Below, piece by piece: positions 6,716 to 64,000 of a stretch of 64,000 nucleotides of DNA. The stretch is from the NCBI RefSeq assembly GCF_964355755.1, contig NC_092677.1, positions 26,027,175-26,091,174 on the forward strand, given 5' to 3'. The notes beneath the pieces are model-generated. The model ran no database searches. It had not been told where the DNA came from and saw only the letters and a program-made list of their open reading frames with translations. The translations under genes were made by a program, and so were the position numbers. This stretch comes from Antedon mediterranea (lineage: Eukaryota; Animalia; Echinodermata). The first letter of the stretch is position 1, and each line of letters starts with the position of its first letter.

Positions 6716-8548
6716 GCGGCCTAGAAGTTGATGACGATCGCCGTTGAACAATTCCGTAATCACAACTCGTCGCCGAGCACCAAAGCCGTCGTCGTCGAGC
6801 ACCAAAGCCGTCGTCGTCGTATCGATTCCTTCTGTTGTTCGATATACGAAGCTTATTTATATGTGTGTGTGTTAAATGTGAATTTTGTAATAGATTGTAG
6901 CCATCAAACATTAATATTTAAACAGTTTTAGTTTTAAAATAAGCAAAAATCGCTAAATATTACCATAACCTTGATATTTTACTGTGTATTGTAATTTCTT
7001 CTTGTAAGAGAAAGTGTAACACTTAGTGTTCTAGACATCGTCAGACGTGACACAACGATTTTGTTAACGTGCGTTCATATCTTGAAATAAATAGTACGAC
7101 TTTTGTGTTCGCTCGTGTTTCATCAAATTTGCGTCAATGGCGAAAAGTAAACGCAATCAGTAACATTAGTTTAAACAGCAAAATATTTGATTCACCACCC
7201 CTCCTGGATTTAAAGTCCGGGTCCTGTCTCCTCTTAACTGCCGGGCTACAAGAACAACTTTAGCGCTGAGTTTATGTGCGTTCTTGTATTGCGTTTCTTT
7301 AACATTTCATTGGTCAGTATTCAACTAACCAGTATGTAAATTATTCGGTGGAGCCGAAGGTGTATATAATTATTTAATTAAATTGTGCAGGTTGTAGAGC
7401 CACTCCTATATCAAATTCAAACATATACCTCAATTATACAGCATAAAATTAAATACGACAAATGTTATTGTTATTGCAGTAAATAGGCCTATATGCATTT
7501 TCTCCTTGATAAGTGATGCCAAAAGATAGACTACGCGAATGGTGGTATACTGATGATAACTATAAATGGTGTTTAATTATTAATTGTGCACTTTTGCGCG
7601 CGTTTCTAGGATGTGGTTATACAATTAAATGCGCATTATACTATAGATAAAAAGTTTGAAAAAAATAGTGATGTAAGTTTGTATATAATAGATATGGTTA
7701 AATATTAAATACATATTATCTATTTATTTTTATGATTTTAAGTAATGTTTTCAAAATTAACATCGTCAATAAACATTGGAAATTGAAAATAATGTTGTTG
7801 CATAGTTTGTTTAAATAGAAAATATTGTGTAAATATTGTGTAGTTTTGACAAGCTTTTATTATGAATGAATGATGATTTAATCAGGGAGTTGTACAATAA
7901 AATTTTTAAATAAGTTTATAACTTCCTGATTTGGACCAATTCAACACTTTTGGACGGCGATGTGAGTTTTTGAACGGTTTGGAAATTTCACGTCAATTAC
8001 AAACGCCTTTTATGGACGATAAACGATGTGTTACTTTTAAGCGCAAAACTTTGACTGACGTCGATTCAATTTTAGGCAGACTGCAGAAGAAGCACACACA
8101 CGGTGTTTACTAGGCCTAGCCTAGGCCTAAATTAACTTATGCGGGATAAGGTTAGCGTTAAATTGTTTACTACCACGAATGGAAATACTGATTGTGCTTC
8201 ATCTTACCTCTCTATATATTTAATTCTTGGGCTAGGTAGCTTAGCTAGGCCTAGTTTGTTAGAGACCCTGTGTTAGGCTAGCTGTGTGTTGAAAAAATAT
8301 GAGGCTCTTTATTTACTTATTAGAGCCCTCTCTAGCCTATTGTGGCCAGGCCTGAGTCTAGTAGGTATGTGCTCTTTCTAGGCCTGACCTAGCCTAGATT
8401 TTTCGAAGGCTAGTAGGCTTGCTAGTAGAATAAATAGTAATCTAGGCTTTATATGATAATGTTGATGACTAAATAAATGTGGAATAAATGAAATAAATAT
8501 AACATTTTTAATGTTTGTTTCACACAGAATGATTATACAAACAACAAG

Positions 8549-8650
8549 ATGGATGCATATGATGAAGATATATCCGAAAATAAATTTTATCGAACCCTGC
8601 TAAATAAGCACAAGCATTTGTACGACAGAGCAGCAGAAACGAGATGGATG
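8549..8650 (+). CDS. ANKRD27: ANKRD27 coding exon 1
   Basis: aagATGG Kozak context; [34 protein letters not shown]; gt donor at 8651; acceptor at 8526-8527 implies an upstream 5'UTR exon. Confidence 0.9.
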
Positions 8651-44600: not shown

Positions 44601-47600
44601 GCCGCGAAGTCTTCTACAGAACTATGTGTTGAATTATTCTCATTACTGAATAATATGATCTGAAAAAAAATAATTGGCCAATTTCCATAAATAGATACAT
44701 TTAAGCCCTGAAGATGTAGGTTATTTATAACTTTCACTAGCAATGCTGTCTTTAAATGTTTAATGAAAATGGATTCCAAATCTTACACTTAATACGTGCG
44801 TCCTGGAGGTATTCTTTATACTGCTAGATTTATGTAATAGAACGAGTGATAGCTAATTTAATTGTAATTATAGTTTACAGATGTAGATCCCTTTAAAGAA
44901 CATCTCAACTTATTACCAGATTTAAAGTGTAAAAAGTAAGAAAATGCCATGGCAACTTTGTAATTATTATAGGTACAGTACGGTATAGATCTTTTAAAAA
45001 AATGTCTCAACTTATTGCCAGATTTAAATTGTAAAGTAAATATATGACACAACAACATAGGTACAGTATGGTAGAGATCCCTTCAGCAGAATACGCAGAG
45101 AACGTGCATGATTGTGATATACATATCTGATATAAATATTTTGATCCCACAGCTTCAGCTATAGATAGCAGTAGAAGTCCCTTTAAATAACTTGTCAACT
45201 TATTGCTAGATAAGTACAACAATTAAGAACACGCTACAACAACTTTGATTGTAACTATAGATAACATTAGAGGTCCTTTAAATAACTTATTGCTAGATAA
45301 GTACAAAGTGTAAGAACATGCTACAACAACTTTGATTGTAACTATAGATAGCAGTAGAGGTCCTTTAAATAACTTTTCAACTTATTGCCAGATAAGTACA
45401 AAAAGTGAGACAATTATGTTTTGATTTGAATAGTAGGCTTTTCTGTCCTCGTGAGGTAATTTCCCGATTAATCGTAATCAAAACGGTACTGGGCTTGGTC
45501 TATTAGCGTTCCTGCTCCCAACCAGTACATCCATTCATAGAAGCTTTAATGAAGTAAGCCTACCTGGTGGTAACCATAGAACGGTTCCGAGATAACGACT
45601 ATACTTCGGCTTTAGTCGATAGAAGATTGAAAAAATTGTTAGAGATAGAGTATACGATGTTTGATTATGTGTAGATGTGTGTTCTGTTCTTTTATTCAAA
45701 TGATGTTATTTATTTAATACTTTAGGCTACATTTTTTAATATCAATCAATTAAATTATCGTAGATTGTACAGGCCTATTATGCGAAAAATATTATTAAAT
45801 AAATTTGTTATATAAATTATTATTATTATTATAATATTAATAAAAATATATTTGTTAGTATAAATTAAAAATATAGATATAAGGAAGAAAAACAAAGAGA
45901 TTATGGAGCGGCTGTACCAGAATATACAACACTAGGTATTGTAAAGTTAATATACAACAATTTTAGGCGATCTTGTCAATACTTATTATTAATAGAATGT
46001 GGGCATTGGTGCTCTACAAGTCTAGGTTCATACATTTAGGTTGTTCTGATGTTGCTTTTATATGTCTTTTTTAAAAATTGTTTCCTTCTTGCTATACTAC
46101 TTTCTCTTATTCTTATTTTCCTCAAATATGTTTCAAATTATTTTCTTCCATCTCACCCTCCATGTTTGCTTTGGTTTATCCATATTGCATTGCATACAAT
46201 ACCACCTCACCTCCTGTATGTCTCATCTAGAGGATGATGCAACAACCTACTTTCCATTGAGTACAGTAATTGTTGTTTCACTTTTGTTTCAAATAATGTA
46301 CCTGGATCATGACATCAAATCATGTTTCATTCAACGTTGAATTTATTTAAATGATTTAATGTTTACTTTGATAATATTCTATAAATATTTGATCTTGGAA
46401 ATGTAGGTTATTTGAGTTTGTAATTTAAGCTTTGAATATTAAAGCACTAAAAACATGCTTTCTAAATGTCACATGATAAACTTTATACAAATCTTCTTCC
46501 AATTAAAATCTATCCAATTAGATCTCTTCGCTGAAAGACCAATTTAAAACCTTCTAATGCAGTTAAATGTTGCACAAATAGTAACAATAGGTAATTGAAA
46601 TCGTCGCTAATTAAGATATAAACACTAGGGAGGCATTTGATAAATAGAAGTAAGGATGCGGGAGGCATGGGAATATCTGTTAGGATGCTAGGAAAGAGAA
46701 TGTTTACCAGAAAGGCATTACATTAACAATCAAATAAGAATCTGCTTTAACAATAAAGAAGATTGACTGTACACAGACATGATAAATGAATTTTATTCAT
46801 TGATTAAATCAAGAAAATGAAATCTCAACACTGTTTAAAGCTCCATCTACAGTATAAAACTAGTTTGACAAAAAAAAGTCTGCCCAAACATGGTAGTGAT
46901 ATGCCCAAATATGGTAGTAATATGACATCATCGTGTCCATATATGGGCACATCATTTTTTTTTCACATACAGTTTGATAGTGTAGACAGAGCTTCATGCT
47001 TCTTTTCACCAGGATAATATTTATATGTCGTTCTTTATAGCGCTTTAATGCACAAAGCTTCTAAACGCTCCAAATGATTACCCCAGTCATGTATTTAACA
47101 CGTATGGACACCTCCTAGGATTATGTAGCTATTAATTAGTGGTGAAGTCTATTTGATTTGACCTTACCATGTACACCTGGGTGGAGAGAGGCAAACGTAA
47201 GTGTCTTGCTCAAGGACACAGTCAATGTTGATTTCCAACTCCAGATAGATAAGTATATTAAGATATTGTACAACTATAGCAAAGGTTTGCTAGTTGATAA
47301 AAAAAAGAAAATTTCTAAACCTGAAAACTGATAATCTTGTAGTATGTTATTGATAAATATCGAGAAATATGTACAGTAAGTAGAAAAGAGATCAACACAG
47401 CATGCCCGAAGAAAGCTGCCTTAAGTTAAAAAACAAAATGAATTGATCTATATATTTGGATGATGAGATGATTGATGGGAAGTGATATGTCATCAGTAAC
47501 CGTTTCTGCTGCAGGCGTACACAAGAACATCATCTATTACAAATTCGTAATCTTTTTCAAATACTGATTGTGTTTCATCAGATATGATACTTCTCGTCTT

Positions 47601-50600
47601 TTTCATTCAAGCTCAAATACGATAAATATTTATTTCTTGAATGTTTTGGATATTTGCATTTTTTTTCAATTAATATATATTGAAGATGTACAGTATTGCC
47701 ACCCTGGCTAAAATAATTTTTAACATTTTTTTCGGAATATTTTCTTTAAATGTCATTTAATAGTTATTCATTTTGACCAAATAATTGAATAACAAAAAAA
47801 AGGATTTACCTGAAAAAAAACTGTAATTTAAAGCACAAAATAGTCTGGCTGCCAGCCAATGGGTTTTTGGTTGAATTTAACCATTTATTTTGTCATTTTA
47901 TAAATGAAAACAATTTTTCTATGAAAGTGAATAAATTTAAAACTACAAATTAACCTCTTCAAAGTCTGATTTATTAATCTTCATTGTGCATGATTTTGGG
48001 AACAATACATCTTGAAACTTTGCAATAAGTAAGTAAAAATTCTTACATGAATTGATTTAATATGTAAGTTCTTGAGATATAATAATTTACAAGCATCATA
48101 AAATATGTAAGAAACATGACAAGTCGTCAATAAAATATTAAAATAAAATAAAATATTAAATTCAACTTAATATGACCTTTTATGTTATTGATATAATGAA
48201 TTGATGAAACCATTTTTTCTACTAAATATGTACAGTAAATTAAAATGATTACATAATCTCAAAGAACATTTATTTTGTTTTATTTAAAGATATATTGTGC
48301 TGAAACAATAAACAATTAACACATTTTTTGTTGAATATGTCATTTTAATGTCACATAATAGTTATTTACTTTGACCAAAAAACTGGATCGAAGAAAAAAA
48401 TTATTTACCTGAAAAAATGTAATTTAAAGCAAAATATACTAAAATTGTCTGTCAGACAATTGTTTTTGGTTAAAATTAACTGTTTCTTTTACTTTTAATA
48501 AGTGGAATAATTATTTTGTTTACATTTTTTTTTCTACAGAAGTGAATAACTTATTTAAACGGTAAAACTGCCTAGCCAAAATCTGATATTATTAATCTTT
48601 ATTTTTCATGTTTTGGGGGGACAATACATCTTTAAAACAATATTCAGTTTAAAGATGTATTGTCCCTTTGACTAATTCCAAAAAAATAAAAAATAAAAGA
48701 TTTCGAAAAAAGGTGGGTCATTTTGAAGTATCATAATAGTTATTAACTATCACCAAAAGTTTTTAGAAAAAAAAAAAAATTTAACTGAAATACAGACGTT
48801 TTTTTGTTTAAAAAATAACTTTGACTTCCAAAATACAAAATACAAACAAAATAAAACTTCCTCATGATCTGTGTGAAAATACCTTCTTAACCGTGACGAG
48901 TTTTAAACAATCCTAATTTAGCATATACATAATGCATACTAATGTGGTTTGAAATCTTTGTTTACTTTCGCTCGTGACGATTTTCCAGATGAAATGTAAT
49001 CAAACTAATTTACCTGTTAATTACGTAAACTTGTTTTTGGCTCAAATTTTCGACTTAAAGTGAATAACTTTAAATATTACTTTGATATGGCCACTTTAAA
49101 TTTAGAATATTTTGACCTTCATTTTTTTGTGTTTCAAGGGACAATACATCTTTAACATTCATGTCAATGTATGTTTTACAATAGAACCATGGAGCTATTT
49201 ATAGCTCCATGCTAGAACTTAAAGACCAATTTTTTTTTAATGAAGACCTTAAAGATGAAAAATCCATACATACATCATGGATACAACAAATTAATATGAC
49301 AGCAGTGAACAGGAGAATTAAATAAAACATTTTTTATTATACATTCATTGAAATTAACCTAGAAAATGTTAGAGGTTTACTAGATTTTATTGCTGTTTTG
49401 TTAGTTCAAATTATAATAGTATGTTATTGATCCTTATTTAGTCTGGTTTAGATTCATAAAAAATGATTAATGCATTGAAAATATATGATCTTATCTTACA
49501 TGCATTTCAAACCATTCAGGTTAATAGCCTGTCAAACTTTGTGAAAAAAAAATGTGATGTGCCCAATTATGGACATGATGATGTCATATCACCATATTTG
49601 GGCATATCACTACCATATTTAGGCACATCACTACCATATTTAGGCACATCACACTTGTTTTAGTCAAACTCTGTAGACAGAGCTTTAAACAAAACTTTGA
49701 CTATTCCTACAAGAATGTCTACATTTTGTCGAAATCCTTTCGCTACATTTTGTCTTGGCGGTATGTTACATACTTACGAGAATGGGAATATTGAATCAAC
49801 GTAAAAGTCTTGTTATACATCAAAACATACATTTAATGTGTACATATTGTGTCTATGTAGCGCACCAAATGAATTTGTCCATTTTGTTCAATTAAAAATA
49901 AGTACGGTGCCTGTCTTTCAACTCTAGATACGTGAGGTATCTTCCTTATCTGTACTTTAACATTAAGAGACAAGCCGATTGAATGCGTAATTATAAATAA
50001 TCTATTAGCTGACTGCATTCTCCCATCAGCGGCATACTTCCCCCGAGTCATAAACATACTTTTGACACTTTCTAATGTTATGTGATGAATGTTGTTAGTA
50101 CAGATAGTGCTATTTGAAGGGATTAGTTATTATAGTGTTTCTTTAAATATTATACCAGTATTCTCTTTTTGATAATCGTGGCTGCAGAACAGAATCTTCT
50201 TTTCAATCATATATCCCACGTGTTACCAGAATTTGGAACAACTTACCCGGTGAAATTCGCAACTTAGATATTTCTGTTAGTTTAGTTTTAAAACCAAATT
50301 GTTAAATTATCTAAATATATATTTTTAAAATAATTTTGATATTGAAAATGTGTGTAGTTGGTCGCTTTCTTGTACGATGCTTTAATTGTAGAACGTAAAT
50401 AAATAAGTTGTTTTTTTTGGTTTGTTTTTGTGACCAACTAGCATAGATGTTTAGCACCTGTTTGGTCTTTCCTTGCCTTTTATATTTGTTTTGTCTTCTT
50501 TATATTGTATATGGCAGAATATTGAGTAAATAAATAAATAAATAAGTATAAATGCATAGATGTCTGTATTCGCTCCAATTCCTTTCTCAGGTGTACCTCC

Positions 50601-53600
50601 TCCCCTTCTTCATCCACCATTCACTAGCAGTCTCCTTTTCCATAATTCTCTATTTAGTGTTTCATTTTTTACCTCTTTTAATTTCTCAGATATAAATCAA
50701 AATTTCTCTTGGTAGTTTTTAAATAAAGTTTTTTTAATGTCAAATCGGTCATAGTTATTTGACCGGTTGAATAACAGGTCAACTTAAGGCATAATTGTAT
50801 CGAACCAATGGCAGTATCAGTTTCTTTAATCAATGTTTCTGTGCCATTATTCTTTGTATTATTTCTGCTTTTATCAATCCTTCCAGATTTAAATGCTATA
50901 ATTCGGATTTTGGATGTTGATTTTTATGTCTGAGGAGACTGTAAAATATTTAACATATTCAGTTTCATGTATTTTGTTATGTTGCTTCCTTAAACATTTT
51001 TTTTTGCAGTTAAACTAAAATAAAATTACACTATGTTTAATTTTTTATTTGGAAGCTGTTATATTTTATTTAAAATGTTTACTAGCGTCACATATATCAC
51101 ATGTGCTGCCTGTACAGTATTATGTTAAGTTTTGTATGACCAATGATACAGGCATCACATGTCATACATTGGTGACACTGTATTACAGCATTTGCCTATG
51201 ATACAGGCAGCACATGTGATACATATGTAACACTGTATTGCAGCATTTGCCTTTGATACAGGTATCACATGTGATACATTTGTGACACTGTATTATAGCA
51301 TTTGCCTGTGATACATGACAAGTTGTAGAATACCAATGCCAAAATAAATGTTTGTTGACTTTTAAATTTTAGGAGACCATTAAATTATAACCATCTAATG
51401 TATATCTCATTACCATCTTTTGCAATTGATTTAAAGCAGTTAAAGTAATAATTTCATAAATTGCTAAAATAAAATAATGTAATACTTAGCGTTATTGCCT
51501 TTTATTGCCAATAAACTTACAAAGTTAAAATGCCAAAAATAACAAGAGTGACTACAAATCACCAACATCTATAAATCATTGTAAAATAAATTGATATTTA
51601 AATTAAAGTTTATTGTTAAATAACAGCCAATATAAATACAAGTGCAATAAAATGAATAATGAAACATATTTTGGATATGACATGTCCTGTACATAAATAA
51701 ATATAATATATTTATTAAATATAATGAAAACAAGACCTCCGCCAGGATTAAAAAGAGGAAAAGTATAAAGAATCAGATAAAGATCTGAAATTAGTAAGAT
51801 GATAAAAAGTAGTCCAGAATTAAGATATGTTGGTCCGGATTGCCTAAATATGCCTAATATGGAGTCATTTAATAGTTAACTACAAATTAGTTTAAACTGC
51901 AATAACTTATTTTGATAACATAGATTTTTATTTGTTTCAATCTAGATATTTATGAGACAACAAATGCGATAAATCTAGCAAAAGCTAACTAAATAATTGC
52001 AGATTAAACAAAATATAGTTACAGCAGTAAATGTTATGTAATTAATCCTAAGACTTAATGGGTTTATTTGTCATCCATCACTTGGCGGTTTATCATGGTT
52101 TGATAAGAACAGAAATGAAAAACAGATTGAAAACAAGGTTGCAACTGGGTCGCGGTCTAAAAACACATGAAACTGGGGCTTTATTAGAGATTATATAGAA
52201 ATTGTGTTAAGAATACTCAAAGTAATTTGTCTGTTCTCCTAAAATAGTAGTAATTGCCTTTGACTAGTACTGGCTTAAGGTCTTGTATTTATATGCTGAT
52301 GTAAACTTAATACTACATCTTAGTATCATAGCAGACCTAGTTAGATAAATCAACTTTATTATGGCACAACGATGCTTAACTATTAAGAAGCTTTTTAAAA
52401 TGTTCTTTTTATAATACTTCATTCGAAAATGTCTGGCCAAAAGATTTTAGAAATGTATGATTGTTTTAGTGGCCGTTTTATTCCGTAGTAGTGGAGCTGT
52501 AGCTTGGTGGTTAATGTGCTTGCCTTTCAATCCCAAGGTCCAGGATTCAATCCCGACCTAGTTCCAGGGTTGTAACTAACTCTTTCAACTCCACTCCCTA
52601 AGCCTAAAATAAGACTTAGTTTATAAGCACAATAAATTATTAAATAGTTTATCCACCCTGTAATTGGCGAGTTACTCGTTGTTGGATACATATGAAAAAA
52701 AATATATAAAAAATTCAAAATGTATTACCTTGTTGGGTTTGAGACTTGTCTTTTCAAACCTGATCATCATTAAATCATGTTAAGTTGTTATATTATATAT
52801 ATGTAGATTAAAATATATTACTATATATAAAATTTGTAGTTTTATTTGTGATTTTGTATTTGAATGATAGTTTGTATAAATTAATATTGCAGGTCAAAAT
52901 AGCATTTAAAAACTAGGACTGTAGTTCATTTTATAAACATTTTCATGGATGTGGGTGACATATTATTATGCGTACTGTACTAGGAGATTTCAAAGCAGTT
53001 AGAAGGTGACTGCTTACTGAAAATGCATTCATAAACAACCAAATTAATCTCAATTTTAAATCTCTAATCTTTGATCTTAAAGATGTATTGTCCCCCAAAA
53101 ACATAAAAAATAAAGATAAAATCAGACTTTGAATAGATTATTTTGTAGTTTTAATCAAGTTAATCACTACCGTAAAAAAAAAATGGAACAAATAATGGTT
53201 TTCACTTATGAAATGAGAAAATAAATGGTTAAATTCAACGAAAAACTCTTTGGCTGGCAGCCGATTTGTGTATTTTTTTGCTTTAAATTACTGTTTTTTA
53301 GGTAAACTATTTTTTTTCGATCCTATTTTTTGGTCAAAGTGGATAACTATTATGTGACATTAAATGGCGTATTCAACAAAAAATGTTAAAACAATTATTT
53401 TTAAGTGGGAAAATACATCTTTAAGAAATGGAACAAGATTTTTTTTATGATAATTTTTTCTAAACAATAACAAAATGGTTACATTTCTTTTTTTATTCTC
53501 ACATTTTAACAATATTTTCTCTGTCAAATCCATTATTCTTAAAGATAAAATGCAAAAGTAAAATGTCAGTTTTAAAATATTCTTTTACACCAATTGGTTT

Positions 53601-56600
53601 TTTAGTTGAACTAATGCATAAATAGTCTTTACAATAAATTAGTGTACAATTTGTCACTAAATGGTTAGAATTACATCTGCCAACTTCATCGTTTGATGCA
53701 TGCTTCTGCTGGCCGGCGATCTGACTTACGGCCACAGGGTAACACGTATTTTATTCATACTTAAATAAAAATCAGAGCCAAGTTTGTAAACCATGTCTAT
53801 TGTATAACCTTTTAAGTATACGCAACGTTTGTGATATTAGCGAGGTCGTGTACTGCACTCGTTATGTCAATTGGCAATGCACCATGGAAACCTGTGATTT
53901 AGATCCAATCGGATTTTATGGATTTTAACTTTTTTTAAATGCTGACTCATATACGTTAATACTAGAATAAATGAACTCTTTAACTTTAAGATAAGCCTTC
54001 AGCTTTGTTAGCTTAGCTAATTATTTATATCAAAAGCATTTTATGTCAACAATTCTGTATGTGGACTGAATGAAGCAGTTCATATGATAACTTCTTCAGC
54101 AAACTGGTTAATTAATGTTTTTATGTCATTCAGTAAAAATAAAATACATTCATTGCTTTTTGAATTGTTTCCACCTGTTCTTTAATTATCTCTGAAGCTA
54201 TTTTTGTTTCATGCAGTATAATGAGAATTAAAGAATTATTTATTTAAAGAACAAAAATTGTTTGTGCTTGGTTCATCAAACTGGAAAAAGTAGAAGAATA
54301 AAATGTTTACTATTGCATAAAGTCAAAGTCATACTTTATTCATCCCTCACTGTGGGAAACCAGGTTCATGCAATTTTCCATATACATATTAAAATACAAT
54401 AAATTATAAACAAATGTAAAAACTATTACATTATGGTAAACAAACATTTCAATACACAAATAAAAGTTAGGGTTTATCTCAAAATTAATATATTTTTCTG
54501 ATGAATCTTTTCAACAATAAGACTATTGGAGTTTCCTCACTTTGGTTACTTTTATTTGTTCTTATTTGTTTGTTCATTTTTATACTGGGTGACCTCTTCA
54601 GTCAAAGACTGATCTCCCAGAGGACCCAGTTGGTGATCAGTGGCTGTGATGTACTAATACACCGGGGTAACCCCCTACTCGTCTCGAAAGATGTACTAGG
54701 TTCTTTAAAGTGCACACGAGCTAGTTGTGTACACTGGACCTACGGTTTATAGTCCTTATCCGAGAAGACTTGTTCTACCACCAGAAACATGGAGTGAGTG
54801 AGCCTCGAACCCTTGCCGATGTTATGGCTACGTAATTACGGTTCCACTGTCTTAACCGCTCGGCCACTCACTCACCACTTGGAACCATGGAAATCTTTTG
54901 TTTCAGGAACAGTATATACTGAGAAACATTATTCTGTAAAGCTCTGTCAAAACTATCAAACTAGTTTGACAAAAAAAGTGTGATGTGCTCAAATATGGTA
55001 GTGATATGCCCAAATATGGTAGTGATATGCCCAAATATGGTAGTGATATGACATCATCATCGGCCACTCACTCACTCAACTCACTTAGCTAATTCTTTTA
55101 CTCTGATACATTACAATAAATATTTTTAACAATAATACTTTGGTTAAGTATTTTCTTCTTCTAAACTTTGTTTATTTTATTGTTTTCAGAACTTCGAAGT
55201 TTCAAAGATTTTAAAGAAAGTAAATGAAAGTTACCAAGAGCAACAAGTTCTGTCGCAAGTTGCCGTGAGACCAACAACACTAGGTAAACTACATTATTCA
55301 ATAATAACTTCTAATTATAACAACTATCTCCTAAACAATTTTTATTTGGAGATGTCTTCTACAGTCACAAATCTTTACACTTTTGGCCAAACTCTATTTA
55401 AACTAAAATGAAACGCACATTAATAATGAAGGAAATTAAGAAACTAAATACCGCCCTCTATTGTTCACTGTCTACTTTTAGTGAGTATTTTATTAGAAAA
55501 AATTATCATGATTTGTAATTGCTAAAAAAATTATTGCAATAATATTATGTGTTTCTTGTTATGTAGTTATTGCTATGGATTAAGAAAGCAATAAATACAG
55601 CTGTTATTGGCATGTTACCAAATGTATTGGTAATTAATCCATAAAAACTATACGTGAGAAAAGCGAGTTGATGATTGATGATTAGTGACAAGGTTTCAAC
55701 AGCTTCATAATGTTAACACATTTGTTTTTTGACAAACGTATATAATTAGGTCCTGTGGGAGATTTAATACCATCGCTGTAATCAGGGTATTTGCATTTGA
55801 ATAATCAAAAAGAAGTGTACCTACTCAAGTACCTACTTTTTACTCTGAATATTAATGCAAAATAGTTATTATGATGTAATTAAGTGGGTTGACATTCACA
55901 ATGTTACAAACTTGAGGAGTATGCTGATCAGAATATCAAGTTTTTTTGTGTGGTATTTGCATGGAAATACTGTAAATCCCAACATTTTCGCGGTTTTACA
56001 TTTCCAACTATTTTGTTATCTTTTATTTTCATGATTTGAGTTTCTTGTCGTCTTCTACAATTTGGCGAACCAAATTGGTGATTGTATTTGTATCAAACAA
56101 TTGAATAGCGTCAGTAAAATGAGTGAATACGCGATTGTAAATTTAGGGATGTAAATAAATAAACATTTTGGCTACACAGTGTGCGAGGCATCATCAGTAT
56201 GACTCTACCAGAAAAAGCATGCGTTTTATTTTCAAATAAATAATAATATAGTTCCCACCTTGAGATTTTCTAAACCTATGGATGGATGGATGGATAAACT
56301 ATTTCATAATTTATAATTACTATTATAATAATTATAATTAATAAGTCTCATTTGAGGAGTGGAGTTAGGATTAAACTCTGGATCTTTGGATTGGAAGGCG
56401 AGCATGTTAACCACCAAGAAGCTACAGCATCACTACTAGCCACAGCTCCACTACTAGCTACAGCTTCACTACTAGCTACAGCTCCACTACTAGCTATAGA
56501 CAGCTCTACTATTAGCTACAGCTCCACTTTTTTATTTAATTTATTTTTTTATCAAACTTTGTTTAATGAGGGTGACCCACTACTAGCTACATTTGAGCTT

Positions 56601-59600
56601 ACATACAAGAAACACAGAAAGTACTGTTGTGAAAGATGAGGATTAGGAGATGTAATAGGCATCTAGTGAACTTGCTTGACAGACCTCGATAGACACTTAG
56701 ACCAAGGCACAAACAAATGACCGACTTTGAATGAACTGACTGTGAAAGAAGTGAAACTGCAAATGACCTCCAACTTTAGGGCATCTGAATTGATTGATTC
56801 TGAACGCTGCTGTTTTAGAGGATGAGTTTGTACAAATGATTATTTAATTCCTAAAATGAGCTTGAGTCAGAAGGAAGAATTCTTAACTTATTTGACAGCG
56901 TCTGAACGCTGCTGTTTGAGAGGATGAGTTTGTACAACTGATTATTTAATTCCTAAAATGAGCTTGAGTCAGAAGGAAGAATTCTTAACTTATTTGACAG
57001 CGTCATAAATTAAAAACACTCTTGTGGTTGTGCACTGGGAACCTTATTTGGTGTCATTTTTGCTGTTTTAAAACACACAATTGCATTTCGGTCCAGAAAT
57101 ATTAAAGATGTATTGTCCCCCGAAAAATTGAAAAATGAAGATTAATTAAATTAGACTCTGAATAGGTTATTTTGTAGTTTTTTATTTTATTTCTTTATTC
57201 TGATATAAAATCAATAGGATAAAAACACAAAAAAGTACCGAGACGGCAAACTTATTTCCATTGTGGTCCTAATCTTTAAATAAAGTTACTCATTTCTGTA
57301 GAAAAAAAATGATAAAATAAATAAATTTTAGTTATTAAAGGATGTTTTAGATGTCGTGAGGTGGTTTCCCAAATGATCGTAAAATCAAAACGGTACTGGG
57401 TATGACCAACTAGCGTTATTGTCACCAGCTAGTCATCCATTCATAGAAGTACTATTGTAGTAGCCTACCTGTACGGCGACCATAGAATGTGACCCGAGGC
57501 ATGACTAGATTAGACTTGGCCTGTAGTTATTGACTTTTTTATGTTAGCCCATGTTTCAATTTTGTCTGAATACTGCAAAAAATATGAGCTCATGTATTTT
57601 ACGTAGGAAATTTGCCAAAATATTTATCTTTTTACTAATTTTGACCTATAACCTAGACTAGTTTAAATGTACATAGTTAATGAATAGACTTGTATGATAC
57701 TTCCTCCCAGTCTTATTTACCTCCGCCAAGGAGGTATATGTAATCGATCGCGTGTGTTTGTTTGTCTGTCTGTTTGTCTGTTTGTTTTGTTTGTTTGTTT
57801 GTTTATTAGCAGGATTACTCAAAAAGTAATTACAAGGTCTTTACCAAAATGAATGTACAGATAGATATGTGGTCAAGGACCATTCCATTAAATTTTAGGA
57901 CCATTTCGGACCACGGTCCCAATTCTGAACCACTTTTTAGTATACTTTTCAGACCTGCTAGTGTTAAAAAGATAGGACAGAATTTTTCAAAGCCGGCGAG
58001 CAGTCTTAAAGTAACAAGTAAAATCAATTGAATTTTCTCGAGAACTACTTGTCCAAAAAACAAGAAGCAAGAGTTATAATTTGTGATTTGTAATTTTAAA
58101 ACATAATTTGATTTAATGTGCACGTTTTTTGATACAAAACTTATTTCTTTTCAAATTCACTCGTTTGATTTTCGCGTTGCTGTTCTATTGTTAGTCAACT
58201 GAAGCTATTGTTAATTGAAAGGCTTGTTACATAACCATTACACCAAACTCGCATACACATGCTTGTAGTGAAATTAGCGTAAATCACAAACAGCATTAAG
58301 ACACACAAATTTATATATATATTTTTTTTTATACCAGAGAAACCTTATGTAGGAGAATTTTACAGTAGGCTTTCTAGTTATTAATGCATTGTGACATTTT
58401 CATTACTGCAAACATTTCTTTATAATTGTTTGAAGCAAATTATGAATTATTAAAACATGAATTTGTTTCATTTGCCAAATTTCAGTTGAGATATTAACCT
58501 GTAGATCTCTTCATTATTAAATTAATCAAATGCTTCAATAAATAAGAATTGTTTTGATGAATCAAATGAAATACAGCAATATCAGAGGAGACAAAACATT
58601 ACAACATTCAAATGCATGTTTAGCAAAATTAAAAACATAAAAAAAAAAAAAAGTTACTGTTTTTCAGCAAGATTTGTTGATGAACAACTGGAAAGCATTT
58701 GTCGACAAATGCACAACATTTTTCATTCCTGCGAGAGATGATTACTTTAGACATTTTTTGACGGATTGCTGTCATTTTAATTGCTTAGTACCATTTTATA
58801 TACTTCCATTTTTAACGCCCCCGGTTTAAACGTTTCAAAAAGGTTGTGATAAAATAAGTAAATGTCTAATAGTCTGTTTCTACTTTGCTTGATTTCCACT
58901 ATATCGTGTCACTATATCAATCATAGTTTTATTTCTAAAGCCTATCATGTATTGAAGTAGTTTTGAAACAGTCAGTTTAACCGTCATATTTAGCCTTGAT
59001 TCACATCAATAATTTTTTAATCTCTGTCATGTCTTTCTCAAATCTCAATATATTTCAACAATTTCTTGTTCATGTGTTATACATTTTTGAAGTTTGAATG
59101 CATCATTTTAGTCTTTAATACAGTATATCGATATGTAGCCTCAGGTCATGGCTAATGTTAACATTTAGGTATTTTATAGTTTTTTTCAAATTATTCACCT
59201 GTTTTATACTCGATTTATTTGAGCATTTTTTATTTGTTTCTGTCATAAGTTTTAGGTTGATGGTTTCTGAAATATATATATCCGTTATGTATCATATTTT
59301 AACTCTAGGTAGTTCAAACTAGTTGATTTTCTGACCTCCTTCGTGTATATTATAGGTTATAAAATGTATGGTAAAGTATCAAGCTAAAATAGTGACATTT
59401 CTTGCTTGGTAAAACTTAACTTAAGCTTAAATCAGTAGTTTAAATGAATTCTATGCTTTCTTTTATTACAAAGGTAAGCTTCAGAGTAGCTTTCTATCTT
59501 AGTTTTCCAAGATATTTGCAAATAATATTTCTTTATTGACAATATTGTTGTTGGTTCATTTTTTTTTAGAGTCTCTGTTTATAGTTTTGTTTTATTTTGA

Positions 59601-62600
59601 GATCCTTTTTTATAACTGGTGTAAATAATGTGTTTATTTCTATGGAATAAAATTGATTTGATTGGTTGATGGATACTGCAGGATGGAAGTTTCAATCGCC
59701 AATTAATAACCTGCAGTTATACCATGTAATATTATTTTACAACTCCCTGGTTATATAGAATCTTATTAGTTATTTATTACAGTACAGAATCTCAGAAAAC
59801 CTCAACTCAATCAAAACCTGATTATTCAATTCATCTTTTATTGGTCTAATTTATATAAAAAAATTCTTGGTTGAAGTACAGACAATATTGATTGAAGTTC
59901 CCAAATTGAAATTGCATTTGTAAAACGAGATTTTCCAGAAAATGTTGGAATGTATTAGGACAGTTCTCTGTAGTATTTCATTTGTAAAGCTCATTAGTAA
60001 TTATGATGTGCCCAAATATGGTGGTGATATGCCCAAATATGGTGGTGATATGCCCAAATATGGTGGTGATATGCCCAAAAATGGTAGTGATAGGACATCA
60101 TAATGTCTATATATGAACACATCACGTTTTTTGTCACAGTTTGATAGTGTAGACAGAGCTTTAGTTTAATCCAAAAATGCAAAATACAATTAAAAGTAAG
60201 ACAATTTAAAACTATCAAAGAAGTGTGTTGATAAATGTTGTGTCATATTATGTTTAGTCATGCTTACTGTTTTCTACATGACTTAATAATTTCTACTTAA
60301 TGTCATTCTTGAAACTAAAGGTCCTCTAATAAAAACGGAGAATAAATTATACTGATTTAACCATTTAAACAGCCAGATGTAGTATGTTTATCTTATTGTA
60401 TTTAAACCTATGAAGTAAATGTTATTGCATTTTGTTAAAATTACCACATGAACATTCCAATTCCAAATCTATCATACATGATTATAGTAGATGAATGCTT
60501 ATAGAAAAGTTCTATAAATAAAATGAAACAATTATTTTTGCCAATGGTGATTAACATTATTTTTCTTTGCTTTTTTTTATTTGGTCTGACTGTAAAAAAT
60601 AGTTTTGTTTCTTTGAACATTTCAATAATTGCTTTTCACAGTAAATGAAATAAATAAATATGTAAATAATGAATTTATTTTATTTTAATTTTATTTCAAT
60701 TATACATCCAACAGCCATTGGAGATTACAAGATATCTTAAACAGTAAAATTTTAAATTCATATATACAAAAGGAAAATAGAATTGAAATGAAATATAAAA
60801 AACAAAATATTAATATCATTAATTGTTGTTTTATTACTCTTTCTTATAAATTGTTTAGCTCCAGGATCTCCTGTTAAAAAAGTGAGCATGCATCAACTGT
60901 TCCAAGCATACAACGAAGCAGATCTACGTCAACACGAAGCACTGAAACACAGTCTGGAAATCTTCAACAAGAGGAAGCAGCTTAAGCAAACAAAATCATT
61001 TGATCGAAGTGCACCAATCCTCGACGTCACATTAAAACATCAGGTAAATATTTAAATTAACTCACCAATTGATTCTTTATTTGTTTGATACAAGAAATTT
61101 TAATTTTTAGTAGTAACTGGCTATTTCTGTCATTACGGTTCTTTCGAAAACTAATGATGGGTAATAACTAAGGTTAATTGACTTTGCTAGGATATCATTA
61201 ACTTGTGATCATTTCATTATGACAAAATGCAACAATGGTTCTCGTGTTCGGTCACGAATCATTAATCATCTGGATTGTCAATATTTTTCTTGAAAAATTG
61301 CCTTTTTTCTTTGAACGAATTCTGACTTTTGTGATTAGTTTGGTTTGAAGTATCCCCAATACTATAATTAGTGTACTTTGATGAGTTTTCTATCTAAAAT
61401 TACTCTTTTTGAAAAAGTAATTAAATATGTTGAAGACAAAATCAAATTATTTTCAAAGGATGGTCCATTTCATTTTATATTAAAGTGAGTTCAGCAGAGA
61501 ATATCAGGAAAAAAAAATTTCCAATAACATTTTTATTGGAAAATAGTTGTTGATATAAATTTTACAGAAATGTGATAAATAAGTAACCAACTTCCCAGGC
61601 CAGATTTCAGGACTTTTCAGTTGCGTGCAAACGCGACTCTACAGCTCACTATGTCGGTCGGTCGGTTGCTAAACATGAATTCAAATTTGAGCACGCAACT
61701 GCAGCCATGTATATGGCCTTGTTTCTTCTCTTTACACCAAATAGAAGCTCAAAACAACCATCCAAAAGATTGAAACTTTCTTTCTGACTGTTTTACTTTT
61801 TTGTTTTAATTGAGCTTTTTTTTCTTATTTTATTTTTGTATCACCATTGAGATCCAGCCACTGATATCCACAGCATTGTCATTTTTTCAGTGCTTTTTTT
61901 ATTTGTATCACCATTGAGATCCAGCCACTGATAACCACACCATTGTAATTTTTTCAGTGCTTATTTTATTTGTATCTCCATTGAGATCCAGCCACTGATA
62001 ACCACACCGTTGTCATTTTTTCAATGCTTATTTTATTTGTATCTCCATTGAGATCCAGCCACTGATAACCACACCGTTGTAATTTTTCAATGCTTATTTT
62101 ATTTGTATCTCCATTGAAATCCAGCCACTGATAACCACACCGTTGTCATTTTTCAATGCTTATTTTATTTGTATCTCCATTGAAATCCAGCCACTGATAA
62201 CCACACCGTTGTCATTTTTCAATGCTTATTTTATTTGTATCTCCATTGAAATCCAGCCACTGATAACCACACCGTTGTCATTTTTCAATGCTTATTTTAT
62301 TTGTATCTCCATTGAAATCCAGCCACTGATAACCACACCGTTGTCATTTTTCAATGCTTATTTTATTTGTATCTCCATTGAAATCCAGCCACTGATAACC
62401 ACACCGTTGTCATTTTTCAATGCTTATTTTATTTGTATCTCCATTGAAATCCAGCCACTGATAACCACACCGTTGTCATTTTTCAATGCTTATTTTATTT
62501 GTATCTCCATTGAAATCCAGCCACTGATAACCACACCGTTGTCATTTTTCAATGCTTATTTTATTTGTATCTCCATTGAAATCCAGCCACTGATAACCAC

Positions 62601-64000
62601 ACCGTTGTAATTTTTTCAGTGCTTATTACCTCCGCCAAGGAGGTTATGTTTTCACCCGTGTGTTTGTGTGTGTGTCTGTGAACAGCCTGGAGGCCACAGT
62701 TTTTATCCGATTCTAACCAAATTTGGACACAATGATCTATTCCCAAAAAGCTCGGACGAGTTCGAATTTGAGGGGGAAAGGTCATAGGTCAAGGTCACAA
62801 CTAACAAAAAACTATTTTACTGTCTAGAGACCACAGTTTTGATCCGATTCTCACCAAACTTAGCCACAATGATCAATGACACATCATATAATTGTGGTTA
62901 CATTTTGAAGGGTCAGGGTCAAAGATCAAGGTCCACAAAAAAAAAAAAGTTATGTAGAGGAATTTTACAGTAGGCGGAGGTTTGTACTCTCGGAGTACCC
63001 TCTAGTTTTATTTGTATCTCCATTGAAATCCAGCCACTGATATCCACAGCATTGTCATTTTTTTAGTGCTTATTTTATTTGTATCTCCATTGAAATCCAG
63101 CCACTGATACCTACAGCATTGTCATTTTTCAATGCTTATTTTATTTGTATCTCCATTGAAATCCAGCCACTGATACCTATAGCGTTATTTTATTTGTACT
63201 TGAAACACAGCATTGTTTTTTAGGTGATTTTCCTATGATATTATTTATAATTAAGTAAGTTTTTATTTTGTGGTTTATTCACAGTTGAGTATAAAGCATT
63301 TTGATAGAAGGCGACTTAGACATATTGAACTTGAAGAAAGCGTGTTACATTTGGTAGCAGAAGAAGAAGAACCAATTGACATTGTTGATAAAAACAAATG
63401 TGATGATAAAAATAGGAAATTGGATGAAAGTAGCAGTGATGAAACAACGTTAGAGGGAAGGAATTTGGAACTTTCTGGAACAAAATCTGCATCTAAGTTG
63501 AAAGATGATTCTAGTGACAGCAAGAATATCAATAACAGTTCCTCTTTCGAATCAAATTCGGAAGAAACAAACTCACAATCGAATGTTTGTTCAACTCAAT
63601 TGGATACATCTGTAATTAAAGATATAACTGGTTTTAATGATACCAATATCTCAAGTACTGAATCAAAGTTTAAAGAAATTGACTCAAAATCAAATATTTC
63701 TACAACTCAATTGGATAAATCTCAATTGGATACATCTGTAATTAAAGATATAACTGGTTTTAATGATACCAATATCTCATGTACTGAATCAAAGTGTAAA
63801 GAAATTGACTCGCAATTAAATATTTCTACAACTCAATTGGATAAATCTCAATTGGATACATCTGTAATGAAACATTTATTTGGTTTTGATGATACCAATA
63901 TTTCAAGTTCTGAATCAAAGTTTGAATTTAAGAAAACGAACTCAGAATCTACTGATTCGCAGTCAGATACTATACAGGACACAACTGGTTCTGATCTATA
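8549..64000 (+). CDS. ANKRD27: Ankyrin repeat domain-containing protein 27 / VARP (VPS9-ankyrin repeat protein); 3' end beyond window
   Basis: 24 in-frame GT-AG coding exons. N-terminus [14 protein letters not shown] resembles vertebrate VARP as I recall it; LFEETYFN motif; VPS9 core ([20 protein letters not shown]...[16 protein letters not shown]); two CHPLCxCxxC motifs; two ankyrin blocks (GxTPLH). Confidence 0.95.
8940..9512. mobile_element. TIR element with 17-bp subterminal tandem repeats (ggccgaatcgtcccag)
   Basis: gatctggt-gggacgattcggccc at left; six or seven inverted units then accagatc at right. Confidence 0.65.
10469..10591 (+). CDS. ANKRD27: ANKRD27 coding exon 2
   Basis: ICIPRSG...YENHILRP...LTASGK; ag/gtaag. 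Confidence 0.9.
10687..11029. mobile_element. MITE family B, TTAA-flanked with AG...CT termini (Kolobok-like)
   Basis: ttaa-agatatattgtccc ... ggacaatacatct-ttaa. Further copies about 18105-18420, 27755-28085, 47683-48013, 48288-48632, 53080-53422 (inverted); partial 27250-27420, 42640-42903, 57106-57310; 48652-49153 has the same TIRs but a different interior. Confidence 0.85.
11275..12540. mobile_element. Two adjacent, oppositely oriented copies of a ~450-bp TIR element (aggtttcgcaa...), the second interrupted by a SINE
   Basis: TIR aggtttcgc..tacgataacgaaaacggatacgtca / tgacgtatccgttttcgttatcgta..gaaacct at about 11280-11726 and 11737-12535; interiors are reverse complements. Confidence 0.8.
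12128..12442 (-). mobile_element. tRNA-derived SINE family 1
   Basis: minus strand head gagtgagtggccgagcggttaag (A box)...ggttcgaggc (B box), (aaac)n tail; closely similar copies at about 17458-17752 and 54565-54876. Confidence 0.85.
13237..13296 (+). CDS. ANKRD27: ANKRD27 coding exon 3
   Basis: [20 protein letters not shown]; ag/gt. Confidence 0.85.
13400..14090. repeat. degenerate (ATC)n microsatellite
   Basis: about 690 bp of catcat/aatcat. Confidence 0.95.
14130..14220 (+). CDS. ANKRD27: ANKRD27 coding exon 4
   Basis: [30 protein letters not shown]. Confidence 0.92.
14731..14805 (+). CDS. ANKRD27: ANKRD27 coding exon 5
   Basis: [24 protein letters not shown]. Confidence 0.85.
15230..15375 (+). 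CDS. ANKRD27: ANKRD27 coding exon 6
   Basis: ...[26 protein letters not shown]. Confidence 0.88.
15589..15711 (+). CDS. ANKRD27: ANKRD27 coding exon 7
   Basis: ...[19 protein letters not shown]... Confidence 0.9.
16351..16564 (+). CDS. ANKRD27: ANKRD27 coding exon 8 (VPS9 domain start)
   Basis: [11 protein letters not shown]...[23 protein letters not shown]. Confidence 0.93.
16600..16790 (+). mobile_element. L2/CR1-type LINE 3' remnant
   Basis: translates as [15 protein letters not shown]...LLKTYLF, the typical ORF2 C-terminal WNxLP motif. Confidence 0.6.
16979..17120 (+). CDS. ANKRD27: ANKRD27 coding exon 9 (VPS9 catalytic core)
   Basis: [38 protein letters not shown]. Confidence 0.95.
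17458..17752 (-). mobile_element. tRNA-derived SINE family 1 copy
   Basis: high similarity to 12128-12442. Confidence 0.82.
17819..18011 (+). CDS. ANKRD27: ANKRD27 coding exon 10
   Basis: [16 protein letters not shown]...SIELLFE. Confidence 0.9.
18672..18802 (+). CDS. ANKRD27: ANKRD27 coding exon 11 (Zn-fingernail 1)
   Basis: [14 protein letters not shown]. Confidence 0.93.
19061..19436 (+). mobile_element. Element bounded by 15-bp inverted repeats (solo LTR or MITE)
   Basis: cgtcgtgaggtggtt...aaccacctcacgacg; first 170-200 bp recur at about 45447-45650 and 57352-57525. Confidence 0.65.
20358..20440 (+). CDS. ANKRD27: ANKRD27 coding exon 12 (ankyrin)
   Basis: [17 protein letters not shown]. 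Confidence 0.93.
20573..21330. repeat. 59-bp minisatellite, about 12-13 copies, two variant types
   Basis: ctacagccaaa at 20633, 20692, 20751...; variants aatccagtagg and aagccaataag. Confidence 0.95.
21970..22190 (-). mobile_element. CORE-like SINE fragment nested in a family A MITE
   Basis: minus strand ggcaagatacttt..cctctctccacccaggtgtataaatgggtac resembles the SINE CORE domain; second copy about 47030-47220. Confidence 0.6.
22338..22453 (+). CDS. ANKRD27: ANKRD27 coding exon 13 (ankyrin)
   Basis: [21 protein letters not shown]. Confidence 0.93.
23593..23685 (+). CDS. ANKRD27: ANKRD27 coding exon 14 (ankyrin)
   Basis: [31 protein letters not shown]. Confidence 0.93.
23981..24089 (+). 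CDS. ANKRD27: ANKRD27 coding exon 15 (ankyrin)
   Basis: CVKAILYS...[13 protein letters not shown]. Confidence 0.93.
24216..24376 (+). CDS. ANKRD27: ANKRD27 coding exon 16
   Basis: [24 protein letters not shown]...YMMMM. Confidence 0.88.
25000..25110 (+). CDS. ANKRD27: ANKRD27 coding exon 17 (linker)
   Basis: TSPDGRQ...QQRARE; ag/gtagg, phase 0. Confidence 0.85.
25500..25664 (+). CDS. ANKRD27: ANKRD27 coding exon 18 (VAMP7-binding helix region, Zn-fingernail 2)
   Basis: [22 protein letters not shown]...[11 protein letters not shown]. Confidence 0.95.
26006..26440 (-). mobile_element. tRNA-like sequence enclosed by ~72-bp direct repeats
   Basis: direct repeats 26006-26077 and 26369-26440; minus strand tRNA-like gcccagtggtctaatggttagg...gagttagagtctcagtgggg at about 26106-26177. 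Confidence 0.55.
26638..26760. repeat. about 41-bp tandem repeat x3
   Basis: aaatattaatattttaaactaagttgagcatttatcctc. Confidence 0.85.
27483..27683 (+). CDS. ANKRD27: ANKRD27 coding exon 19 (ankyrin)
   Basis: [13 protein letters not shown]...[11 protein letters not shown]. Confidence 0.93.
29411..29760. repeat. about 187-bp tandem duplication
   Basis: ttttataacacacctac...cgtggcaaaatgtt twice. Confidence 0.85.
29926..30045 (+). CDS. ANKRD27: ANKRD27 coding exon 20 (ankyrin)
   Basis: [31 protein letters not shown]. Confidence 0.93.
31206..31603. mobile_element. MITE family C, TTA TSD (PIF/Harbinger-like)
   Basis: tta-aggcccatttacactagg...cctagtgtgaatgggcct-tta. Confidence 0.85.
31711..31876. 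mobile_element. MITE family A, intact copy
   Basis: both TIRs present (aactctgtctacac...gcgtagacagagct). Confidence 0.85.
32355..32842. repeat. about 56-bp minisatellite, about 9 copies
   Basis: recurrent cattactgcagtagatcttgtgttggtgtacagtacatct. Confidence 0.9.
33528..33689 (+). CDS. ANKRD27: ANKRD27 coding exon 21 (ankyrin)
   Basis: [23 protein letters not shown]...[12 protein letters not shown]. Confidence 0.92.
33890..34730. repeat. degenerate, nearly G-free repeat (aattcactccatat)
   Basis: many ttcactccat/tacactccat units. Confidence 0.9.
35331..35733. mobile_element. MITE family C, second copy in opposite orientation
   Basis: same TIRs and TTA TSD as 31206-31603; interior reverse-complemented. 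Confidence 0.85.
35847..36007. mobile_element. MITE family A, intact copy
   Basis: both TIRs present. Confidence 0.85.
39005..41360. repeat. 16-bp satellite (ctgataataccagggtc/gac), about 2.35 kb, with higher-order structure
   Basis: variant blocks recur at 252-bp and 949-bp offsets. Confidence 0.97.
43960..44000 (-). ncRNA. Second minimal type I hammerhead ribozyme motif (Penelope-like)
   Basis: Minus strand UAGCA-CUGAUGA-A-GGGC-UAGUGUU-GCCC-GAAA-GC-UC^UGCUA: 5-bp stem I, 4-bp GC stem II, stem III reduced to palindromic AGCU. Confidence 0.78.
44011..44055 (-). ncRNA. Type I hammerhead ribozyme motif (minimal, palindromic stem III)
   Basis: Minus strand CUGCA-CUGACGA-GAUCUAAUAAGUUC-GAAA-CAGUACUG-UC^UGCAG: intact CUGANGA and GAAA cores, GUC cleavage triplet, 5-bp stem I. 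Confidence 0.85.
50178..50545 (+). mobile_element. CR1/L2-type LINE 3' remnant
   Basis: [26 protein letters not shown] followed by T-rich UTR and (taaa)n tail. Confidence 0.6.
52490..52690 (+). mobile_element. tRNA-derived SINE family 2
   Basis: tagcttggtggttaa A-box-like, gattcaatcc B-box-like; copies about 25817-25990 (+), 56345-56430 (-), 24740-24870 (-). Confidence 0.7.
54565..54876 (-). mobile_element. tRNA-derived SINE family 1 copy
   Basis: high similarity to 12128-12442. Confidence 0.82.
55190..55283 (+). CDS. ANKRD27: ANKRD27 coding exon 22 (ankyrin capping helix)
   Basis: strong polypyrimidine+cag acceptor; [11 protein letters not shown]... continues the phase-0 frame; gtaaac donor. 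Confidence 0.7.
56799..57004. repeat. 102-bp tandem duplication
   Basis: tctgaacgctgctg at 56799 and 56901. Confidence 0.85.
57718..58370 (+). mobile_element. Helentron/DINE-1-like element, 3'-truncated
   Basis: same 5' hairpin, (gttt/gtct)n, and ttatgtag..aattttacagtaggc near the end as in 62628-63005. Confidence 0.6.
60859..61043 (+). CDS. ANKRD27: ANKRD27 coding exon 23 (WH2-like motif)
   Basis: phase-1 acceptor; [31 protein letters not shown]; gtaaat donor. Confidence 0.75.
61830..63190. repeat. 57-bp minisatellite, about 17 copies, split by a Helentron-like insertion
   Basis: unit ttgtatctccattgaaatccagccactgataaccacaccgttgtcatttttcaatgcttattttat. Confidence 0.95.
62628..63005 (+). 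mobile_element. Non-autonomous Helentron/DINE-1-like element inserted in a T run of the 57-bp array
   Basis: 5' acctccgccaaggaggt hairpin, GT microsatellite, 3' subTIR ggcggaggt, hairpin gtactc-tcg-gagtac, CTAG end, no TSD; related copy about 57718-58370. Confidence 0.75.
63285..64000 (+). CDS. ANKRD27: ANKRD27 coding exon 24 (second WH2/thymosin-like motif, acidic S/T-rich tail with 42-aa repeats); open at window end
   Basis: cacag acceptor; stop-free frame [19 protein letters not shown]... to end of window (absent from ORF track, probably because it has no stop). Confidence 0.75.
   Translation, partial: MSIKHFDRRRLRHIELEESVLHLVAEEEEPIDIVDKNKCDDKNRKLDESSSDETTLEGRNLELSGTKSASKLKDDSSDSKNINNSSSFESNSEETNSQSNVCSTQLDTSVIKDITGFNDTNISSTESKFKEIDSKSNISTTQLDKSQLDTSVIKDITGFNDTNISCTESKCKEIDSQLNISTTQLDKSQLDTSVMKHLFGFDDTNISSSESKFEFKKTNSESTDSQSDTIQDTTGSDL

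Follow-up and report, generated by a model that had tools for sequence, protein, structure and literature searches.

A candidate tandem WH2/beta-thymosin-like module in the C-terminal tail of VARP/ANKRD27 from the crinoid Antedon mediterranea

Retromer is thought to reach actin via the WASH complex, and a tandem-WH2 protein is recognised as a nucleator or Arp2/3 activator by a repeat number of at least three, or by a C/A (acidic-Trp) motif. The retromer adaptor VARP (ANKRD27) bears Zn-fingernails, which the available parts of PMC7539009 and PMC6032885 define by the motif CHPLCxCxxC and date to the holozoan ancestor, and in human cells VPS29 recruits VARP, which is found together with retromer and FAM21, a subunit of WASH (PMC4059916, accessible portion). 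Among actin-binding motifs, the WIP-actin contact is described in the available part of PMC7407642 as follows: helix residues L36/L37/I40 enter the actin barbed-end cleft, K47/K48 lie opposite an acidic patch, R54 forms a pair with E93 of actin, and S55 permits close approach; according to the same portion, beta-thymosins place a second, C-terminal helix on the actin pointed face. In the open-access literature, no link of VARP/ANKRD27 to WH2 or thymosin was found; ankyrin repeats, VPS9 and thymosin were named together in proteomics papers, and ANKRD27 stood beside G-actin only within gene lists. As far as their accessible portions go, the term "WH2" occurs 0 times in the main text of the VARP-evolution papers PMC7539009 and PMC6032885, the VARP-SNX27 preprint and PMC3279394 make no mention of an actin-binding site in VARP, and the divergent-WH2 screen PMC4314737, which lists Ensembl ids, gave 0 matches to VARP names and to six VARP peptide words. 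An earlier note or an automatic annotation in subscription journals, InterPro or bioRxiv supplements is possible. The module described here is real and conserved, and apparently so far undescribed; its motif class is a known one, and the trafficking protein that bears it has been studied in depth.

The window, by which we mean the whole analysed stretch of 64,000 nucleotides of A. mediterranea, is AT-rich animal DNA (GC = 0.32) and carries on its forward strand 24 coding exons of a VARP/ANKRD27 gene (8525..64000, +), located through tblastn and exact matches of its 1474-aa gene model, P0001; residues 1250-1474 of P0001 fall past the window end. The crinoid protein shares with VARP/ANKRD27 the VPS9 domain (Pfam, residues 282-386, 75 bits), followed by eight ankyrin stretches in two stacks, both CHPLCxCxxC Zn-fingernails (carried, according to the P0001 sequence, by exons at 18672..18800 and 25500..25664, both +) and the N-terminal LFEETY motif, and the named ones among its top matches are ANKRD27-like proteins. 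A homology search with exon 23 returned, from 27 candidates, P0001 and the ANKRD27-like protein P0002 of Anneissia japonica (84% identical). Upstream, the 3' exons of another gene (2086-6712, +) encode alternating EGF-like and ShK-like cysteine-rich modules (ShK match of 21.1 bits at 6524-6712) and end about 1.8 kb before VARP. Within VARP, the 21.5-kb intron at 33690-55189 contains large satellites built of 17-bp units (33900-34728 and 39005-41352). Long open frames at 39000-41400 were rejected as genes, being translations of repeats.

The sequence-only reading had placed its actin-binding motifs on exons 23-24 of this gene, a numbering that agrees with the 24 exons to which P0001 was mapped here, and the peptide it gave for them is present as written, in frame and identical to P0001. 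Exon 21, with the last ankyrin repeat (33529..33689, +; start good to about one base, GT donor at 33689/33690, placed by mapping of P0001), exon 22, encoding a capping helix and linker (55190..55283, +; AG/GT ends), exon 23, encoding the leading helix, repeat 1 and the beginning of repeat 2 (60859..61043, +; AG/GT ends), and exon 24 together give 384 stop-free codons that agree with P0001 letter for letter. Exons 23 and 24 join in frame, and the junctions 33689/55190, 55283/60859 and 61043/63285 all have a GT donor and an AG acceptor. Of these three, 55283/60859 was found in reads: one 1358-nt X1 contig spans 55190-55280 and 60856-61043, gapless in contig coordinates, the 3-base slide at the exon 22/23 junction being a shared TAG. 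The spliced match ends exactly at the 55190 and 61043 boundaries, beyond which 760 and 319 letters extend; X2 and X3 contigs, unlike X1, continue into introns. This contig is the sole read evidence, X1 being RNA by guess (no run recorded as RNA matched the stretch), and junctions 33689/55190 and 61043/63285, absent from the reads, rest on P0001, P0002 and other homologues.

If exons 23-24 were part of another gene, or the motif a chance resemblance, the 21.5-kb intron before exon 22, with its junction absent from the reads, and the lack of a Pfam match above cut-off in the crinoid copy would be accounted for. Several observations, however, speak against this: (i) the X1 contig splices exons 22-23 and extends past both ends; (ii) VPS9, ankyrins and module stand on one protein in dozens of species; (iii) six of these proteins, 1087-1314 aa long, come from contigs of just 3.7-4.5 kb (P0008, P0020, P0030, P0032, P0036 and P0042); and (iv) the VARP of Capsaspora (P0305) aligns to the module directly by BLAST. 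We regard such an explanation as exceedingly improbable and largely refuted. The spliced contig and the shared protein assign the module to VARP, and its motifs are kept from Capsaspora to birds.

The module consists of a leading helix and two repeats of the form S-I-x-x-F-D-x(3-4)-L-[RK]-[RKH]-x-x-T-x-D-[KR]-S-x-P. Its conserved leading helix (60882..60932, +; residues 958-974), delimited by a column profile and a predicted helix, has the consensus S-[IV]-x-x-L-F-x-A-F-E-E-x-D-L; invertebrates and Capsaspora retain it, whereas in amniotes it has been replaced. Repeat 1 (60933..61025, +; residues 975-1005), identical to the WIP peptide of PDB 2a41 at 13 of 19 residues, comprises in the crinoid a predicted amphipathic helix, F985, LKQT (991-994) and DRSAPILD (998-1005); the hydrophobic moment of 975-985 is 0.49, above the 90th-percentile value for windows of the tail (0.41), and the consensus among VARPs is L-x-x-S-I-R-x-F-D-[RK]-x-x-x-L-[RK]-[RK]-T-x-T-x-D-[KR]-S-x-P-x-L-D. 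Repeat 2 is interrupted by an intron (61044..63284, +) that contains tandem arrays of 66-bp units (61824-62627 and 63006-63183), so that by the P0001 mapping its first part (61032..61043, +; L1008-Q1011) ends exon 23 and its second (63285..63338, +; L1012-E1029) opens exon 24, which begins at 63285 after an AG acceptor. Its consensus is L-x-H-Q-L-S-I-x-H-F-D-x-x-x-L-[RK]-H-V-x-[TS]-x-D-[KR]-S-x-P; the crinoid copy reads I-x-x-F-D-x-x-x-L-R-H-I, with exact thymosin spacing, and the D-[KR]-S-x-P extension, present in most invertebrates, is gone in crinoids. The two repeats are mutually homologous (HHalign 97.7%) and stand in tandem, 31 residues from L-K motif to L-K motif.

Across the 31 aligned copies, the L, F and L positions are invariant (31/31) and K or R follows each L in 31/31, in both repeats, while the extension columns of repeat 1 hold D in 30/31, K or R in 23/31 and S in 28/31. 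At the L-K-K-T positions the crinoid has LKQT in repeat 1, a departure from LKKT, and LRHI in repeat 2. Identity between the two crinoids (P0001 and P0002) is 86% in residues 958-1028 and 25% in residues 1029-1400, to be compared with 90% in VPS9 and 81-88% in the ankyrins. The acidic tail of exon 24 (63339..64000, +) is poorly conserved in the crinoid alignment, and it contains a 126-bp (42-residue) coding tandem repeat of 2.6 copies (63595-63923, +) in a region that aligns poorly with Anneissia. Past the window end, residues ~1400-1474 of P0001 form a second conserved island (SVEDMVTLTLDMRDNYF, SPLTDSDVD), in which P0001 and P0002 share 65% identity.

Judged by its residues, repeat 1 appears to combine a WH2 of the long WIP type with an F-[DN] linker like that of thymosins. 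It shares with the long WH2 motifs of WIP/verprolin and MIM (PF02205; 2a41, 2d1k) the amphipathic helix, L-K-x-T and D-R-S-A-P, whereas in VARP the helix closes on [IL]-x-x-F-[DN], as in thymosins, and VARP, unlike WIP, is a Rab GEF/retromer adaptor without a central proline-rich region. The crinoid equivalents of the WIP contacts are L982/F985, L991-K992, R999 and S1000. With the beta-thymosins (PF01290; thymosin-beta4, Ciboulot), it is repeat 2 that shares I-x-x-F-D-x-x-x-L-[KR]-[HK] in exact spacing; the I-x-x-F-D-x-x-x-L-K linker is exact there and one residue longer in repeat 1. On the other hand, neither thymosin E-K-N-x-L-P nor a conserved helix follows repeat 2 in the aligned VARP copies, which in contrast to thymosins lack a free helix at the C-terminus (an REKVLP ending occurs only in repeat 2 of Capsaspora), and the repeat period is 31 residues in VARP versus ~38 in thymosins. 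The crinoid module was rejected as a beta-thymosin, lying under the PF01290 cut-off and having no second C-terminal helix after repeat 2. Repeat proteins of the P0240, P0288 and P0291 type (L-K-H-x-E-T-x-D-K-S-x-P), which we take to be actobindin-like, share the repeated L-[KR]-[HK]-x-x-T-x-D-[KR]-S-x-P core but are stand-alone repeats, with neither the F-D linker nor the VARP domains.

The WH2/beta-thymosin likeness that had been read from the letters was upheld by profile comparisons in both directions. A VARP-only profile, built from 31 VARP stretches and containing no known actin binder, gave 13 matches at E<=10 against PDB, 10 of which, including all of the top seven, are thymosin, WIP, MIM, Cobl or Ciboulot chains; the E-values were 1.3e-4 for thymosin-beta4/Cobl (4pl8), 0.004 for WIP (2a41), 0.013 for MIM (2d1k) and 0.029 for thymosin-beta9, so just one match reaches E<0.001. 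Against 1.84 billion proteins the same profile gave 192 matches at E<=0.001, and among the best 150 of these, 76 had no BLAST match to VARP: by hand count, 63 of the 76 lie above the Pfam WH2/Thymosin cut-off, 4 match below it, 8 have no such match and for 1 the result was not shown. Beta-thymosins supply the best PDB match as well as about half of the non-VARP matches within the best 150 of 192. In the opposite direction, Pfam at E<=10 matched Thymosin in 22/31 and WH2 in 18/31 of the isolated VARP stretches, and 13 of 30 full-length VARPs contain a sub-threshold WH2 or Thymosin match, every one within the module. The Lingula stretch, alone among 12 scanned singly, passes the WH2 cut-off (24.3 versus 23.1 bits), and the VARP-like fragment P0296 reaches the WH2 gathering score (PF02205) with 24.9 bits. 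The crinoid copy stays under both cut-offs: the whole protein and exon 23 alone have no Pfam WH2 or Thymosin match, and the joined stretch has no WH2 match and scores 13.2 bits for Thymosin (PF01290 cut-off 24.8; best among the 12 stretches 22.2). A reciprocal profile of 83 repeats from 47 non-VARP proteins gave 17.3 bits on repeat 1 of the crinoid and 5.7 bits on its repeat 2, compared with 3.9 for the best of 300 shuffles of P0001, and gave nothing on orangutan and termite VARP; this comparison is partly circular because the repeats were picked by a VARP-derived profile. By its sequence, the module may thus work like a long WH2 with a thymosin-type linker, yet the crinoid copy fails the formal Pfam tests.

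The module was found in 53/120 listed VARP homologues (iterated profile, E<1e-3). For scoring by group, 144 proteins (143 with a source name) out of ~240 VARP-like proteins were used, and repeat 1 was called present at >= 15 bits, that is, at least 15 bits. By this measure it is present in sponges (1/2), cnidarians (6/7), molluscs (17/19), the nemertean/brachiopod/annelid set (3/5), echinoderms (9/10), hemichordates (2/3), amphioxus (3/3), lungfish (1/1), caecilians (2/2), squamates (12/12), turtles and crocodilians (5/5), birds (14/14) and marsupials (2/4), several misses within retaining groups being short or partial gene models; failure to score in one model alone says little about loss. 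At the same threshold none was scored in placentals (0/18), teleosts (0/18), frogs (0/3), lampreys (0/2), tunicates (0/2), arthropods (0/10) or Trichoplax (0/1), and platypus reaches only 13 bits. Amphioxus has one repeat only; it was counted under "both repeats" as an artefact, because the profile of repeat 2 also picks up repeat 1. Capsaspora P0305, publicly annotated as "muscle ankyrin repeat protein 3", has both repeats (whole module 48.4 bits, E=1.5e-8; repeat 1 alone 9 bits), which matches the holozoan-ancestor date of the Zn-fingernails. The clams Ruditapes and Mercenaria have three repeats and clam-like fragments four, a rise in number that would be as expected of a binding repeat. In mammals, the module decays stepwise to an R-D-R-S-V-P-N relic, and where the crinoid tail has the tandem module intact, placental VARPs, including that of orangutan, keep the relic alone.

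From this distribution, the module appears to be an ancestral holozoan feature that was lost in several lineages, and its absence from the placental, teleost, frog and arthropod VARPs sampled suggests that it is dispensable. Its treatment as an invertebrate speciality in the sequence-only reading did not hold, given the copies in Capsaspora, lungfish, caecilians, reptiles and birds. The loss in placentals, teleosts and insects would explain why the module has seemingly been overlooked. Past the module, the tails of amniote and lungfish VARPs (P0121-P0239) share a conserved R-R-H-[TS] motif, even where the module has decayed, with R-[CS]-H-T in teleosts; it is possibly a kinase or 14-3-3 site.

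Structure models place the module as short helices in a tail predicted to be disordered. In isolation it was modelled as a helix, an extended segment and a helix, with no globular fold (AlphaFold, pTM 0.32), and a Foldseek search with this model gave nothing in PDB at E<=0.001, as expected because the peptide is non-globular. The full-length model of Lineus VARP, an orthologue and not the crinoid protein, has after the second ankyrin stack a low-confidence tail around one helix (pLDDT <50 at 940-963, 995-1008 and 1030-1132). The leading helix (P0001 958-982) resembles the two degenerate ankyrin hairpins before the Zn-fingernails (428-450 and 702-725), which make up the top five of 89 HHalign windows, with a best probability of 69%; a third ankyrin hairpin, for which this is weak profile support, is not borne out by either model, the helix being straight and single in both.

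That hairpin likeness enters a different account of the module, in which a WH2-derived peptide has a partner other than conventional actin, such as Arp1 of dynactin, Arp2/3, a trafficking factor or, as an autoinhibitory clamp, VARP's own ankyrin stack. The H-Q-L-S-I between the repeats is also conserved beyond WH2 needs, and placentals, in which the helix and L-K-K-T are gone, still have R-[DE]-[RK]-S-x-P-N, which hints at a second use. Against such a partner, however, both models show one straight leading helix and no hairpin, the residues that never vary coincide exactly with the positions at which WIP and thymosin contact actin, and the closest non-VARP relatives are WH2/thymosin repeat proteins; we consider it decidedly unlikely.

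In our preferred reading, which we hold to be likely, the tail would bind one or two G-actins at the retromer coat, holding monomers or tethering the coat to filament ends. By comparison with the WIP-actin structure, repeat 1 would insert its helix (L978, L982, F985) into the barbed-end cleft of G-actin and contact the acidic patch through LKQT, and R999/S1000 would act as R54/S55 of WIP do, giving a tight "long" WH2; repeat 2, 31 residues further, would take a second monomer, more weakly. The Zn-fingernails would hold VARP on retromer coats beside WASH/Arp2/3 patches, where the tail could hold monomers locally, or tether coat and VAMP7 to growing filament ends. The cellular part of this scheme we infer by analogy from human VARP, itself without the module. 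Weighing against the scheme are the sub-cut-off Pfam scores of the crinoid copy, its LKQT in place of LKKT, the low score and lost extension of its repeat 2, the lone PDB match at E<0.001 and the dispensability of the module.

Known tandem nucleators generally use three or more repeats, or dimerise. The sequence-only reading had proposed that VARP might bind or nucleate G-actin, and direct nucleation in the manner of Spire or Cobl, when VARP clusters on retromer arches, could be argued from the tandem L-K motifs 31 residues apart, the three or four repeats in clams, the upstream polyproline runs in sea urchins and Capsaspora and the bivalent binding of VARP to retromer coats (PMC7539009, available part). 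The module does resemble Spire, Cobl, JMY and WASH-type activators in having tandem, putatively actin-binding repeats in a disordered region of a membrane-trafficking protein, but most species have two repeats and amphioxus one, crinoid repeat 2 is without D-R-S-x-P, polyproline was found in 3/46 proteins checked, and there is no conserved acidic-Trp motif, on which ground an Arp2/3-activating VCA tail was rejected. Direct nucleation thus appears very unlikely and that part of the proposal was dropped; VARP by itself is probably neither a nucleator nor an Arp2/3 activator.

A broader account would join these elements: the ancestral holozoan VARP would have been an actin regulator of the retromer coat, its module having been acquired, before animals arose, together with the Zn-fingernails that bind VPS29; in clusters on retromer arches the module would seed or tether filaments without need of WASH-Arp2/3 and so link actin to Rab21 activation and to the release of VAMP7, with later separate losses in arthropods, tunicates, lampreys, teleosts, frogs and placentals. 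Taken whole, we find this doubtful. Should the preferred reading of monomer binding or tethering be true, VARP would offer a second, direct actin contact from Capsaspora to chicken, the picture of the ancestral endosomal recycling machine would have to be revised, and mammalian VARP, the basis of the published VARP work considered, would be a reduced version. The module would also add to known motifs a hybrid of long WH2 and beta-thymosin missed by Pfam. Its loss pattern covers nearly every standard model animal, and chicken is a vertebrate system with the module intact.

An actin pattern had 0 matches in viral contigs. Thymosin/WH2 repeats were further seen fused to an eCIS-core, FHA, a Ras-like GTPase with TRAF finger, or a short-chain dehydrogenase (P0325, P0303, P0374 and P0375), and P0325 and P0303 may be prokaryotic.
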